Shown: piece after piece, positions 58,683-63,755 of the stretch
How the letters are laid out: every line of letters begins with the position of its first letter
How positions within the stretch are numbered: the first letter of the stretch is position 1
From: an uncultured Acidobacteriota bacterium
Lineage (GTDB): Bacteria > Acidobacteriota > UBA6911
Assembly: GCA_963827655.1 (NCBI GenBank)
Contig: CAWHCF010000022.1
Location: 64,001-128,000, forward strand
DNA: 64,000 nt
Direction: 5' to 3'
The notes under the pieces: model-generated
The model's database searches: none
Seen by the model: the letters and a program-made list of their open reading frames with translations, nothing else
Told to the model about the DNA's origin: nothing
Made by a program: the position numbers and the translations under genes

Positions 58683-58967
58683 ATGGCACTGGTGAAGGTC
58701 AAGCGCTTTGCGCAAGTAACCTTGCCCCCGGACCTACGAAAGCGCTTCAACCTGACTGAAGGCGATTACCTGGAGGCCGAGGCCGTGAAGGAAGGCATTC
58801 TCCTCAAGCCTGTGACCGTGATCGAGCGAGCAAGAGCCTGGGACAAGGTATTTGGTGCGATGAAGAGCGTCAAAGACCGAAAGCCAAACCCTAAGCAGGG
58901 CCCCAAGGAACAAGAGGAGGAGATCGCTTCCTGGGTCAAGGACTTCAGAAAAAAGCGGCATGCCTGA
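58683..58967 (+). CDS. AbrB/MazE/SpoVT-family antitoxin
   Basis: QVTLPPDLRKRFNLTEGD...GILLKP; TATAAT at 58628-58633; overlaps the PIN gene. Confidence 0.88.
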   Translation: MALVKVKRFAQVTLPPDLRKRFNLTEGDYLEAEAVKEGILLKPVTVIERARAWDKVFGAMKSVKDRKPNPKQGPKEQEEEIASWVKDFRKKRHA

Positions 58968-59397
58968 ACCTCTCCGCGTGGTGCTTGATTCCACGGTACT
59001 GGTAAGCGCATTTCTTGCGGAGAAGAAACTCTCCGCCGAGCTCCTCCGCTTCGCTCGCCAAGGAGCTTTCATCGTGTGTTCAACCAATTCCATCCTGGTC
59101 GAAACCCAGCGCGTGCTTCTGGAATATCCTCGCATCCGTCGCCGCTACGAATACAAAGACCAAAAGGTGTTTGACTTTGTCCAGGGGTTACACGTTCTCG
59201 CCCGGCTCAGCATCGACCTTCCGGCGATCAAGGTAGTAAGAGATCCTGAAGATGACGTGGTGATTGCCACCGCGCTGGCTTCTCAAGCAAGCCACGTGGT
59301 TACGAGAGACAAAGATCTTCTTTCACTGAGAACGCATGAAGGAATCACGATTACGACCCCCGAAGATTTCATGGCCCTGCTCCGCAAGCGTTCTTAG
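58960..59397 (+). CDS. PIN-family putative toxin (PIN_3 type)
   Basis: RVVLDSTVLVSA; RDPEDDVVIATA; VTRDKDLL; TPEDF. Confidence 0.88.
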   Translation: MPEPLRVVLDSTVLVSAFLAEKKLSAELLRFARQGAFIVCSTNSILVETQRVLLEYPRIRRRYEYKDQKVFDFVQGLHVLARLSIDLPAIKVVRDPEDDVVIATALASQASHVVTRDKDLLSLRTHEGITITTPEDFMALLRKRS

Positions 59398-60216: not shown

Positions 60217-60251
60217 AGTAGTCCTCCCCGGTGTACTTTCTTGTTTTTTCG

Positions 60252-60331
60252 GGTCTTCGAGTCTTAGTGGTTGGTTTTGTTCTGCCGCACTAACCACGAA
60301 GGCACGAACGACCGAACGAAGGCACGTAAGG
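60252..60331. repeat. Nonamer-family inverted-pair element
   Basis: gtcttcgagtcttagtggtt facing aaccacgaaggcacgaac...gaaggcacg. Confidence 0.65.
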
Positions 60332-60379
60332 CGTTTCACCAGCGCCTAGAAACGACATTTTAACGGGACGGCTGCTCGC

Positions 60380-60443
60380 AAAATGTTTTCAAAAAAAATT
60401 TTTCTAAAAAATCGTTGACAACATTTTTGAGCTCTGGCAAAGT
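60380..60443 (+). promoter_or_regulatory. Sigma70-like promoter with A/T-tract UP element
   Basis: A/T tracts 60380-60412; TTGACA 60415-60420; N17; CAAAGT 60438-60443 preceded by TG. Confidence 0.6.
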
Positions 60444-60450
60444 GACGCCC

Positions 60451-60683
60451 GGTCGTTGCAGTTTGCGTGACCTTGAACACCGGTAGATGATCGACGGATG
60501 GGCTTAACAGGTTTGTTCGTCGGGCTAGGAAGCCGGAGCCAGTTGGCGGAAACCAATTCCCAACTGGTGTCGTCGAGAGAGAGACTTGACGACTGGTAGC
60601 GCCTTCCGGCTGACGTTCGATCCCGGGCAACGGGAGAGAACATTCCAAAAGGATCGGGTCAAGGGAACGGAGCCGCAACGGCC
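60451..60683 (+). ncRNA. Candidate structured non-coding RNA (about 233 nt), family not recognised
   Basis: 5' and 3' ends pair; five internal helices; G-U pairs favour the + strand; promoter directly upstream, T-rich run directly downstream. Confidence 0.6.
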
Positions 60684-60827
60684 ATTTTATTTTGTCCCGC
60701 TGACCGAAACAATCCACCGCCAAGACTCGAAGTCGCCGAGAACCCATAGGACCACCAAGATCTATTTGGGTCTCGTTTCTACGGGTGCTAGAATCATGGC
60801 GTCTACATCATTTTCACGGAGGCCCGG

Positions 60828-61193
60828 ATGAAAAAGGTGATGGTCTATTCAGTCGTACTGGCATGCACTCTGGCCGCTTCGATCGCGCTGGGCGCCAACG
60901 GCAATATCGATAAACGCGAGTATGTCTGCATGATGCAGGACATGGTTTTGACCAAGCCGGGAATTGCCATTGAGTACGAGGGAAAAACCTACTACGGCTG
61001 CTGCGACATGTGTAAAGACAAGATCAAGAACCAGCCGCAGAAATACACGCGAGCTACCGACGCTGTATCCGGCAAGCAGGTCGACAAAGCCACCGCGTTC
61101 ATCTATGGGCTCGACGGGGACGCCTACTACTTCACCTCCGAGGCAAACCGAAAAGCCTTCGCCGAAAATCCGCAGAAGTTTCTCAAGAAGTAA
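60828..61193 (+). CDS. Secreted tandem YHS/TRASH-domain protein
   Basis: GGAGG; signal; VCMM..YEGKTYYGCCDMC; DAVSG..YYFTSE. Confidence 0.8.
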   Translation: MKKVMVYSVVLACTLAASIALGANGNIDKREYVCMMQDMVLTKPGIAIEYEGKTYYGCCDMCKDKIKNQPQKYTRATDAVSGKQVDKATAFIYGLDGDAYYFTSEANRKAFAENPQKFLKK

Positions 61194-61295: not shown

Positions 61296-63755
61296 ATGTC
61301 CGCTTTTGCGCGCCTCTACGAAAAACTCATTCTCCGGCACCCGCTTCTCGTCGTCCTTGCCTTTGGCGCCGGGCTGATCTTCTTCGGCTACAACCTCAAG
61401 AATTTCCGCATGGACGCGTCGAGTGACTCACTGATCCTCGAAAACGACGCCGATCTGAAATATTACGAAGCGACCCGGGAAATCTTCGGCTCCGACGACT
61501 ACATTGTCCTCGCAGTCACGCTTCGCGAGCATCTGCTTTCCGACAACGTGCTTCGCACTCTGGAAAGCCTTTCTCGGGAGCTGGAACGGGTCTCGAATAT
61601 CGAATCGGTCAACAGCGTTCTCACCGTCCCGCTCTTCCATAGCCCGAAGGTTTCACTCTATGAAATGGGGACTCAGCACAAGACCTTGCTGATGGAGGGG
61701 TGCGACCGCCAGCTGGCCTACCAGGAGCTCACCACGAGTCCTCTGTGGCGCAATAACCTTATTTCCGAGGATGGCAAGACCACAGCCATTGTTCTCACCT
61801 TCAAGCCCAATGCGGAGTTCAACGCGCTCCGAGACGAACGTTACCGTCTCCGCCGCCAGCAGGCTTCGGGAAGTTTGACGGCCGATGAAGAAAGGCGGAT
61901 GAGAACGGTCAACCGGGCCTACAACGAAAAGCATGCCGAACTCTCGGCGCAACGGCGCGCCGATGTGCGGGAAATCAGGACGATCCTGGCCAAGTACCGC
62001 GGGCAAGCCTACGACTTTGTCGAGTCCGGCCTGCCGATGATCATCGCCGACATGGTCAGCTACATCGAACGAGACATCATTGTTTTCGGGATTGCGGTCC
62101 TGGCATTTCTCACTGCGGTTCTGGGCATCCTCTTTCGACAGGTCAAATGGATCCTGCTTCCGATCGTAACCTGCTTGATCTCCGCCATCTTCACGATGGG
62201 TTATCTGGGGTTGACCGGCTGGGAAACGACGGTGGTCTCCGCCAATTTTTCTTCGATGCTGCTCATCGTGGGGATGCAGAACGCCATCTACCTGATCGTG
62301 CGCTTCAGGGAGATTCATGCGCGCTTTCCCGAGCGCGACAAGAAGGACATCCTGTTTCAGACCGTGCGGGAAATCAGCGTTCCGTGCTTTTATGCTACCG
62401 CGACCGCCGTGGCAGGTTTTGCGACCCTCATCATCAGCGGCATCCGGCCCGTCATCGATTTCGGTCTCCTTATGGCGGCAGGTCTCTCGCTCGCCTATGT
62501 CGTGAACTTTACCTTCTTTCCGGCTGCGCTCCTCCTCTTCCCCAAGGGACCGCCACCTCCAAAGCATCTCGCTACGCTGGAGAAATCACCGGTCGCATTT
62601 CTGGCGGCATTCAGCCGCCGGCACCAAATCCCGATCGCAATGGCAAGCCTCGGGCTTCTCGGCGTATCAATCGCAGGTATGACGAAGCTTCAGGTGGAAA
62701 ACCGCTTCATTGATTATTTCCGGAAAAGCACGCCCATTTCCCGTGGCTTGAGCGTGATTGATGAACGCCTCGGGGGCACGACATCGCTGGAGATCGTCCT
62801 CGACGGCAAGAAGAAGGATTACTGGCTGGAGCCGCAGAATCTGGAGATCCTGCGCAAAATCCACAAACACACCGAGCAGCTGCCGAACGTCGGCAAGGTA
62901 TCGTCACTCGACACGCTGATCGAGATTCTGACCAAAGTCAACGACGGCGTTCCGCCCAACAAGTTCATCCTCAATCTGGCGCGCGCGACCCTCGCGCCCA
63001 GGATGCAGCAGGCCTATCTTCTCCCCTATGTGACCAGCGACTTTTCGCAAGCGCGCATCTTCATCCGGATTCGCGAGTCGAGCCCCACGCTGAGCCGTGA
63101 TGCCATGCTGGGAGACCTCGCAAATTTTCTGAGGAAGGAAACCAGGTTTACCGAGGATGAGGCCCGGGTCACCGGGCTCTTTGTCTTATACAACAACTTG
63201 CTGAACAGTCTTTTCGACTCGCAGATAAAGACGCTGGGCGTGGTCTTCGTGGTGATTTACTTGATGCTGGTTGCGCTCTTCCGCTCTTTTTATCTCTCCT
63301 TTATTTCGATGTTACCGACAACCCTTCCGATCCTGATTATCCTGGGAACCATGGGGGCGCTTCATATCTCGCTCGATATGATGACGATCATGATCGCTTC
63401 CGTGACCATGGGAATCGCCGTCGACAACATGATCCAATACACATTCCGTCACCGGGATGAGTTCCGTCTTCATGGAGATTACACCGTCGCCACGGACAGG
63501 ACGCACAACAGTATCGGCCGGGCGATTCTCTATTCCAATCTCACCATCATCGCCGGGTTCAGCATCCTGGCGTTATCGAATTTCATCCCGACCATCTACT
63601 TTGGAATCTTTACCAGCCTGGCCATGAGCGCCGGGTTGCTGGGTTCCCTCACTCTCCTTCCGATGTTGCTGAGTCTGCTCAAACCGTATCGACGCCGCGT
63701 CGTCGACCCACTCGCAGAGGCTGATCGTCAATCGTCAACCGCCAATCGCCAATAG
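61296..63755 (+). CDS. MMPL/RND-superfamily transporter
   Basis: Two repeated halves, each a periplasmic loop plus 5-6 TMs; FGSDD; GIAVDNMI; GRAI..S. Confidence 0.88.
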   Translation: MSAFARLYEKLILRHPLLVVLAFGAGLIFFGYNLKNFRMDASSDSLILENDADLKYYEATREIFGSDDYIVLAVTLREHLLSDNVLRTLESLSRELERVSNIESVNSVLTVPLFHSPKVSLYEMGTQHKTLLMEGCDRQLAYQELTTSPLWRNNLISEDGKTTAIVLTFKPNAEFNALRDERYRLRRQQASGSLTADEERRMRTVNRAYNEKHAELSAQRRADVREIRTILAKYRGQAYDFVESGLPMIIADMVSYIERDIIVFGIAVLAFLTAVLGILFRQVKWILLPIVTCLISAIFTMGYLGLTGWETTVVSANFSSMLLIVGMQNAIYLIVRFREIHARFPERDKKDILFQTVREISVPCFYATATAVAGFATLIISGIRPVIDFGLLMAAGLSLAYVVNFTFFPAALLLFPKGPPPPKHLATLEKSPVAFLAAFSRRHQIPIAMASLGLLGVSIAGMTKLQVENRFIDYFRKSTPISRGLSVIDERLGGTTSLEIVLDGKKKDYWLEPQNLEILRKIHKHTEQLPNVGKVSSLDTLIEILTKVNDGVPPNKFILNLARATLAPRMQQAYLLPYVTSDFSQARIFIRIRESSPTLSRDAMLGDLANFLRKETRFTEDEARVTGLFVLYNNLLNSLFDSQIKTLGVVFVVIYLMLVALFRSFYLSFISMLPTTLPILIILGTMGALHISLDMMTIMIASVTMGIAVDNMIQYTFRHRDEFRLHGDYTVATDRTHNSIGRAILYSNLTIIAGFSILALSNFIPTIYFGIFTSLAMSAGLLGSLTLLPMLLSLLKPYRRRVVDPLAEADRQSSTANRQ

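Follow-up and report, generated by a model that had tools for sequence, protein, structure and literature searches.

A structured RNA of a previously undescribed family encoded by its own gene in uncultured Acidobacteriota

A 64,000-nucleotide (nt) stretch of DNA from an uncultured Acidobacteriota bacterium (contig CAWHCF010000022.1, positions 64,001 to 128,000; hereafter the window) raises the question of what is encoded between its positions 60380 and 60693, where a promoter-like sequence precedes an extensively paired region. The original prediction, made from the letters of this DNA, described a stand-alone RNA that is either a divergent relative of the RNA polymerase-binding 6S and Ms1 RNAs or a new class. 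It also proposed a scan against Rfam, a count of compensatory changes among homologues and a search for a canonical 6S RNA elsewhere in the genome, all of which have been carried out here. Our analysis indicates that window positions 60451 to 60684 on the + strand are an independently transcribed gene for a structured RNA of ~234 nt. This stable RNA represents a new family, and as a class it has no described relative. The explanation that we favor for the locus as a whole combines this new-family RNA gene with a proposed role of its product in trans, and we give that combination a probability of about 50%.

The + strand of the gene folds with a predicted free energy of -114.8 kcal/mol (z score -5.66), and none of 200 dinucleotide shuffles folds as well. 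The - strand fold is weaker (-87.8 kcal/mol, z score -3.17), which agrees with the many G-U pairs on the + strand and is consistent with the strand bias that had first been noticed in the single sequence. An RNAalifold consensus derived from 27 full-length copies comprises 73 pairs and is fully nested, wherein the interior forms a four-way junction with three hairpin domains: P3, P4-P6 and P7 (Table 1). Eight of the nine helices originally proposed recur in this comparative consensus. They include the closing stem, GUUU-G-CGU/ACG-GAGC, CCUUGA/UCAAGG, GCCGGA/UCCGGC, CCAGUUGG/CCAACUGG, GUCGUCGAG/CUUGACGAC and the 15-bp hairpin at 60491-60523, which has the seven G-U pairs and the lack of mismatches ascribed to it. 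The ninth helix, TTCGATCC (60616-60623) with GGATCGGG (60651-60658), is wrong. It exhibits zero compensatory changes and does not exceed shuffles, and its bases instead go to P7 (60616-60640) and to the inner part of P2 (CCGGU at 60480-60484 with 60653-60657).

Base-pairing has been maintained among homologues. In an alignment of the 27 full-length copies made by sequence alone (A1), 97.0% of cells are paired versus 91.8% in shuffles, and 31 of the 73 pairs carry compensatory changes, which is above the 16.5 +/- 2.2 seen in shuffles (0 of 500). When the 3′ partners were slid by 1 to 3 columns, only 3 to 11 pairs were compensatory. After three divergent members were added and the set was fitted to a covariance model (A2), the number of pairs that change on both sides was 44 of 73, versus 20.6 +/- 2.6 in shuffles. 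Finally, the 14 column pairs that rank highest by corrected mutual information in alignment A4, which contains 78 distinct genomic and metagenomic sequences, are all pairs of the RNA's structure.

The same mutual-information search of the 78 sequences revealed no pseudoknot or long-range covariation outside the nested helices. This result bears on the possibility that the RNA is self-sufficient, as a ribozyme, a trans-acting ligand sensor or an RNA-only assembly, with a standing like that of the orphan classes raiA, ROOL, GOLLD and OLE. A compact tertiary fold is indeed suggested by the multi-junction architecture, the invariant junction strands, the GGCAA pentaloop of P7 and a GNRA-type GAAA mini-hairpin in J7/2, the last of which is weakly supported. 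However, the RNA is far smaller than ROOL, GOLLD and OLE, and no conserved neighboring genes hint at a chemistry. With the missing long-range covariation added to these points, we regard a self-sufficient RNA as improbable.

Conservation along the molecule is uneven. P5 and P6 vary freely with compensation, and P2, P3, the P7 loop and the junction strands are nearly invariant. Three pairs of P2 show compensatory changes and six are invariant. The sequence of P3 hardly varies, and four of its G-U pairs are retained as such in 26-27 of the 27 aligned copies; in the divergent relatives the hairpin is also present, with some changes. In P7, which carries the GGCAA loop, CCGGGCARCGGG is invariant among the 27 aligned homologues. 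The region does not behave as a protein-coding gene. Of 73 distinct homologues, three have a frame free of stops through the whole RNA on the + strand and 30 have one on the - strand. Homologue lengths vary between 229 and 250 nt by increments not divisible by three. The early impression that no credible open reading frame (ORF) is present was therefore correct, as no frame is conserved.

The ends of the gene are marked by the similarity among its relatives. The 29 blastn matches extend mostly from query positions 71-72 (window 60450-60451) to about position 314 (window 60693). Because similarity starts and stops at the exact limits of the predicted RNA, these matches support the gene limits. 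The inconstant neighbors described below bear out the claim that the RNA gene stands alone. The window copy scores 261 bits with the covariance model. Upstream of the RNA, relatives share promoter elements only, and comparison of 59 distinct upstream regions shows that the gene has its own conserved sigma-70-type promoter. A TTG[AC][CA] element lies 35-37 nt before RNA base 1 in all 59 regions, and 55 of these contain the strict TTGAC. The -10 region follows the pattern yAAAkT (CAAATT in 10 of 59 regions, CAAAGT in eight); ~80% of the regions have A as the second base and ~90% have T as the sixth, and a TG dinucleotide is found at -15/-14 in 28 regions. At a constant place before the -35 element, a T-rich tract is followed by an A-rich tract, and this sequence may serve a role like that of an UP element. 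In the window, the fold begins at 60451 after a gap of 7 nt from CAAAGT. Thus, the UP-like tracts, the arrangement TTGACA-N17-CAAAGT and the distance to the fold had all been read correctly.

The closing stem (P1/P2) pairs the 5′ and 3′ ends of the RNA and doubles as an intrinsic terminator. A T-rich run directly follows this stem in 27 of 27 aligned homologues, as the U tract does in the window copy. A scanner for consensus promoters and terminators called neither at the RNA gene. The promoter was missed because CAAAGT matches TATAAT at only three of six positions, and the terminator was missed because its stem encloses the entire RNA. The assignment of both elements consequently rests on comparative conservation.

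Table 1. Features of the RNA gene and its flanking signals in the window. Pair counts and compensatory changes are from the comparative consensus.
Feature	Position	Strand	Remarks
A/T-rich tract, UP-element-like	60380-60412	+	Upstream of -35
-35 hexamer TTGACA	60415-60420	+	Followed by 17-nt spacer
Extended -10 element TG-G-CAAAGT	60435-60443	+	TG 60435-60436, CAAAGT 60438-60443
RNA gene	60451-60684	+	Predicted 5′ end 60451; 3′ end at or shortly past 60684
P1/P1b closing and terminator stem	60451-60467 with 60668-60683	+	15 pairs, 6 compensatory
P2, CCUUGA-A-C-A-CCGGU	60471-60484 with 60653-60664	+	12 pairs, 99.1% of cells paired
P3, 15-bp hairpin, loop AAC	60491-60505/60509-60523	+	7 G-U, no mismatch
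J3/4, unpaired CUAGGA(A/G)	60524-60530	+	C, A and G invariant in 27/27
P4	60531-60536 with 60606-60611	+	Encloses P5 and P6; 4/6 pairs compensatory
P5, variable A-rich loop	60538-60568	+	Compensatory changes in 5/8 pairs
P6	60569-60593	+	Compensatory changes in 8/9 pairs
J6/4, conserved strand UGGUAGCGCCUU	60594-60605	+	Inside P4 domain
P7 hairpin, GUUC-GA-UCCCG-GGCAA-CGGGA-GA-GAAC	60616-60640	+	8 pairs, 3 compensatory
J7/2, possible mini-hairpin CC-(G/A)AAA-GG	60641-60652	+	76.5% of cells paired, 1 compensatory change
U tract ATTTTATTTT of intrinsic terminator	60684-60693	+	Directly 3′ of closing stem

A search with the 4227 families of Rfam 15 gave no match at gathering score anywhere in the window, and at E<=10 nothing was found on the RNA body or on the RNA in 16 homologous loci. 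The matches listed are chance ones on the AT-rich promoter, together with tRNAs and sub-threshold Acido-Lenti-1 hits elsewhere in the loci. Two of these Acido-Lenti-1 hits (L074:497-544 and L008:2201-2237; 32.2 and 27.8 bits, gathering score 37) sit within ~1 kb of RNA copies. ARAGORN found nothing in the window. The titles and abstract openings returned by a full-text literature search contain no description of such an RNA, and to this extent the suggestion of a new class is supported.

The alternative suggestion, that of a divergent member of the 6S/Ms1 group, is not supported. A canonical 6S RNA (RF00013) is encoded on another contig of the same genome (G000:C52), where it scores 84.7 bits against a cut-off of 46.4, and the RNA matches no Rfam 6S-type model at gathering score or at E<=10. 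Its interior is a four-way junction rather than a rod with a central bubble, and it occurs in up to three copies per genome and is missing from many close relatives. RNase P RNA, transfer-messenger RNA and signal recognition particle RNA are likewise found on other contigs of this genome (324, 170.9 and 69.8 bits, respectively), which excludes these identities and fits the lack of their signatures reported at the outset. A weaker version of the 6S idea invokes a functional analogy, wherein an unrelated RNA would bind RNA polymerase. The RNA is probably abundant in soil RNA libraries, its closing stem is long and irregular, and about 30 unpaired junction nucleotides could form a bubble-like center. 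Yet that center carries three hairpin domains, and the resident 6S RNA, the multiple copies and the patchy occurrence count against the analogy as well, which makes it a distinctly unlikely reading.

Besides 6S and Ms1, two other protein-associated RNA types, Y RNAs and Csr-type RNAs, can be set aside. Bacterial Y RNAs (YrlA) pair with the Rsr protein, and RsmX/Y/Z and CsrB, which are controlled by GacA/UvrY, are associated with CsrA. The closed-end stem of the RNA recalls Y RNAs, and a palindromic site upstream of many copies, together with the multiple paralogues, recalls rsmX/Y/Z. However, the TROVE domain of Rsr (PF05731) was found in only 3 of 51 genomes, being present in 2 of 19 carriers and absent from the window genome and the other 17, and this absence leads us to reject a Y RNA. 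No CsrA was detected in the window genome, in G025 (100% complete, with two RNA copies) or in G029, even though 17 of 32 genomes without the RNA encode it. GGA motifs are not enriched (mean z 0.57 versus dinucleotide shuffles). The Csr/Rsm sponge is rejected on these grounds, and the chance that the RNA is either a sponge for CsrA or a ligand of Rsr appears very slight.

Assembled contigs place the RNA in soil and rhizosphere RNA libraries at high summed depth. Part of the stretch occurs in 20 public runs from 17 studies, and six of these runs are soil or rhizosphere metatranscriptomes. Four RNA runs from four studies were compared with the window in the form of assembled contigs, not reads. 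Contigs cover 60461-60684 (224 nt) in run X18, 60461-60672 in X16 and 60469-60683 in X20, and X15 yielded 481 short matching contigs. Summed over contigs, word depth is as high as 9.6e5 in X15 and 2.7-4.3e3 in X16. In six contigs, Illumina adapter letters adjoin position 60461 on the left, and in three they adjoin position 60684 on the right, which indicates that many inserts ended there, as they would for a short discrete molecule. Neither of the two adapter types occurs at both ends, and in a stranded library of the dUTP type this pattern would mean that the RNA derives from the + strand. We conclude that the RNA is probably highly expressed. The flanks (60300-60452 and 60691-60800) are uncovered in the four RNA runs; we draw no inference from this because the flanks are strain-specific and the data are contigs. 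In X15, T rather than C accounts for over half of the summed depth at position 60553 of the P5 loop (27 contigs), which is strain variation within the family.

The RNA is confined to one family of uncultured soil Acidobacteriota. In a blastn sample of 61 genomes, made up of the window's own and 60 relatives, the stretch occurs in 16. The window genome is one of these, and the remaining 15 come from a set of 36 genomes of its family; 24 genomes drawn from 13 other families yielded none. Genome searches with two covariance models (R1 and R2) found the RNA in 19 of 51 genomes of the order, with all carriers in one family and 1-3 copies in each. With strict filters, these searches gave no carrier among 86 other genomes of the class or among 149 others in the phylum sample. 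A motif scan of named genome records gave 25 loci, all in metagenome-assembled genomes labelled Acidobacteriota or Terriglobia. Short, weak covariance matches (20.7-29 bits) occur in G020, G062 and G069.

Within this family the RNA is dispensable, having been lost in many species, and in others it has been amplified to 2-3 diverged paralogues. No RNA was found in five more genomes of the family, three of which are 96-98% complete. In genus g2, clear copies occur in only 3 of 30 species, and these are divergent (197-219 nt, 110-118 bits with R2). Copies that share a genome have 78-87% identity, with the exception of three recent pairs (96-98%). The window genome has a single copy, which is placed close to the base of the main clade. 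In g2 the divergent copies sit in the gap that separates prmA, which encodes the L11 methyltransferase, from a gene for a YacP-type NYN nuclease, and one paralogue group of genus g9 occupies the same position (L012 and L014). The orientation of the RNA in L073 and L074 is the reverse of that in L072 and the g9 copies, and prmA is divergent. In g2, where the neighboring ORFs of this locus were unchecked by Pfam, the gap upstream of prmA measures 35-61 nt in species without the RNA versus 355-465 nt in the three carriers. No hidden divergent copies were found at this locus. In the window genome prmA is on another contig. The simplest reading of these observations places the ancestral locus between prmA and yacP, with later loss from many species and duplication to new loci in others. 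YacP and PrmA are both ribosome-related.

One contig, G017:C116, holds two truncated copies of 317 bp that are 91.5% identical (L099:6213-6529 and L099:11081-11397). Both run from the upstream palindrome described below to RNA position 183 and break after GGGCAACG in the P7 loop, beyond which the sequence is unrelated. The first has a MacB/FtsX permease gene after it, an arrangement also seen at L019, where the RNA is full-length, and a fragment of an IS1-type transposase lies ~3 kb further on. We considered these copies as integration sites and rejected this idea. Because there is no 3′ half on the contig and the neighbors are ordinary genes, they are more likely to be decayed duplicates.

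No gene constantly adjoins the RNA among 100 loci, and the largest cluster of flanking proteins, that of prmA, covers 11 of them. The window neighbors, which encode SDR, YHS/TRASH and MMPL proteins, are not common to relatives, with the exception of MMPL in one. The 75 flanking ORFs that were compared with Pfam matched 61 families; the 25 most frequent of these belong to ordinary enzymes and transporters, and no nuclease, recombinase, reverse transcriptase or toxin family is among these 25. A mobile-element or defense RNA, such as an omega or bridge RNA, a retron or a type III antitoxin, was rejected because constant adjacency to such a gene does not show among the 25 families. Plasmid and phage collections contain no match to the RNA. 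An IMG/VR contig of 1268 nt (L208) has the conserved P3 motif at its very end and is probably a short misfiled bacterial fragment.

These surveys also bear on whether the RNA is a leader or riboswitch that controls a downstream gene in cis. In 9 of 100 loci the RNA is followed, on its own strand, by a gene for a YacP-like nuclease at a distance of 73 nt to ~3.4 kb, and the distance is ~70-190 nt in 4 of 6 listed members. However, the genes found downstream vary from locus to locus, two relatives carry the RNA inverted with respect to yacP, and the terminator stem is the RNA's own P1. A chance fold is excluded by the strong covariation and the conserved promoter, and a hidden ORF is contradicted by the reading frames that are not conserved. 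A cis leader, a chance fold and a hidden ORF together form the least credible set of explanations that we weighed.

In the window itself, the RNA is followed on the same strand by the gene for a YHS/TRASH metal-binding protein (60828-61193) and then by that for an MMPL/RND-type transporter (61296-63755); in L011 (G003), too, an MMPL gene comes after the RNA. About 1 kb upstream, a PIN-domain (VapC-like) ORF (58960-59397; PF13470, 2.1e-17) overlaps a 94-amino-acid ORF (58683-58967), and the two are probably a toxin-antitoxin pair. Among 33 loci, five have a tRNA-Asp(GUC) gene 0.4-1.3 kb upstream of the RNA (L004, L011, L012, L021 and L028), and a tRNA-Met gene is near the RNA in L025 and L029.

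Most paralogues share a further upstream module of ~150 bp (L002-L030, for example L008:1290-1500). It comprises a palindrome, (A)GTTTCC-N6-GGAAAC(T), at about -134, an A-rich run, an ATATCTC motif and then GATATCCTGTGGA(A/T)AA at about -71, a motif that we take to fit a relaxed DnaA-box consensus. The 18-bp palindrome GTTTCC-N6-GGAAAC, with two mismatches or fewer allowed, is present in 43 of 59 distinct upstream regions, mostly at -134. An ATATCYTGTG box occurs in 40 of 59 at about -71 and is doubled in tandem in L007, L018, L027 and L030. Exact palindromes in the genomes lie upstream of RNA copies at 2 of 2 sites in G009, 2 of 2 in G014 and 1 of 2 in G025. The other sites, in G000, G005 and G025, look like chance matches inside coding sequence. 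The 6-N6-6 layout is like that of the Csr/Rsm upstream activating site, with a different sequence, and it recalls the arrangement at GacA-controlled rsmY and rsmZ. Transcription of most paralogues, the window's not included, would probably be switched by a dedicated factor that acts on the palindrome and the ATATCYTGTG boxes.

What does such an RNA do? We propose that it acts in trans as a stable scaffold or decoy for protein that works through its abundance, a role to which we assign a little less than even odds. A protein-binding RNA fits best with the combination of ends that are closed in a helix, invariant helices and junctions, freely covarying spacers, probable abundance, paralogues and a private upstream site. 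Two features point in this direction. The helical elements P2, P3 and P7 are invariant in sequence and the four G-U pairs never become G-C or A-U, and both ends of the RNA are locked in a helix, which points to protein binding rather than to base-pairing with other RNAs. The partner would recognize the invariant elements of P2, P3 and P7 together with the junction strands, and P5 and P6 would serve as structural spacers. This partner is not CsrA or Rsr, and nothing suggests that it is RNA polymerase.

Several observations weigh against this account. Kinship among the copies inflates covariation statistics relative to shuffles, so the control with slid partners is the safer measure. The contigs start at 60461, which is 10 nt inside the predicted 5′ end at 60451. 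Such libraries usually lose ~10 nt at the 5′ ends of RNAs, and the start at 60461 may reflect this loss or a processed end. Moreover, assembled contigs prove neither transcription, strand, true ends nor level, carry-over of DNA is possible, and the summed depth pools many related strains, as the number of contigs in X15 illustrates. No gene co-occurs with or constantly adjoins the RNA in the flank surveys of the 100 loci. The window copy has neither the palindrome nor the ATATCYTGTG box (window 60250-60414), only A/T tracts, and the dedicated switch therefore does not apply to it. Lastly, the conserved unpaired strands CUAGGAGG and GUAGCACCUUC could equally be base-pairing seeds.

This last point leads to the main competitor of a protein-binding RNA, a regulatory small RNA (sRNA) wherein a conserved unpaired strand pairs with mRNAs and controls their translation or decay. 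The seed might then be GUAGCACCUUC in J6/4, which is anti-Shine-Dalgarno-like, CUAGGAGG in J3/4, or the loop of P3 or P7. As is usual for sRNAs of this type, the gene is transcribed from a promoter of its own and ends in an intrinsic terminator that includes a U tract, conserved single-stranded segments are present, and paralogues with different promoters are common among sRNAs. In contrast, 73 bp in ~234 nt and invariant helical elements P2, P3 and P7 are unusual for seed-type sRNAs, and the candidate seeds reside in junction strands rather than in open loops. We consider a base-pairing sRNA unlikely on balance.

If the protein-binding scaffold or decoy is carried one step further, the RNA could be among the most abundant non-ribosomal transcripts of its hosts, which form a widespread soil lineage. 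It might then act through its partner as an abundance-based global regulator of transitions between growth and dormancy in soil, with most paralogues switched through the palindrome. This would amount to the logic of Gac/Rsm or 6S built from entirely different parts, and we offer the proposal tentatively. Acidobacteriota are among the dominant soil bacteria and are mostly uncultured, and to our knowledge almost nothing is known of their RNA-based regulation. With 73 bp under strong covariation, a regulated promoter of its own, 2-3 paralogues in some genomes and contigs of very high summed depth in soil and rhizosphere RNA libraries, the RNA is a good candidate for a major regulator or ribonucleoprotein specific to its lineage. 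The covariance model built here defines the family for submission to databases, and it allows the RNA to be annotated in metatranscriptomes, where it is otherwise counted among unassigned reads.

Comparison with known systems places the RNA beside several classes. Like 6S RNA and Ms1, the RNA of Actinobacteria that is likened to 6S, it is a stable molecule in the range of 200-300 nt that ends in a long stem, has its own promoter, is probably abundant and is present as paralogues in some genomes. It differs from them in sequence and structure, with a four-way junction where they have an open bubble, and in its patchy occurrence within one family, where it coexists with canonical 6S. RsmX/Y/Z and CsrB resemble it in having several redundant genes preceded by an 18-bp 6-N6-6 palindrome that is near-unique to the RNA genes in the genome. 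Unlike these RNAs, which are strings of GGA hairpins, the RNA has a fixed, covarying fold without GGA enrichment, several of its carriers lack CsrA, and the window copy lacks the palindrome. With the Y RNAs it shares an end in a long stem, a branched module inside and multiple copies per genome, but it has no tRNA-like T/D arm and no Rfam match, and Rsr is missing from most carriers. Among the orphan structured RNAs that came from Breaker-laboratory surveys and are now in Rfam, the raiA motif belongs to another phylum and, unlike it, the RNA described here matches no Rfam family and is tied to no constant gene. Both are nonetheless conserved, multi-stem RNAs of ~200 nt that were discovered by comparative analysis and are highly expressed, probably so in the case of the RNA described here.

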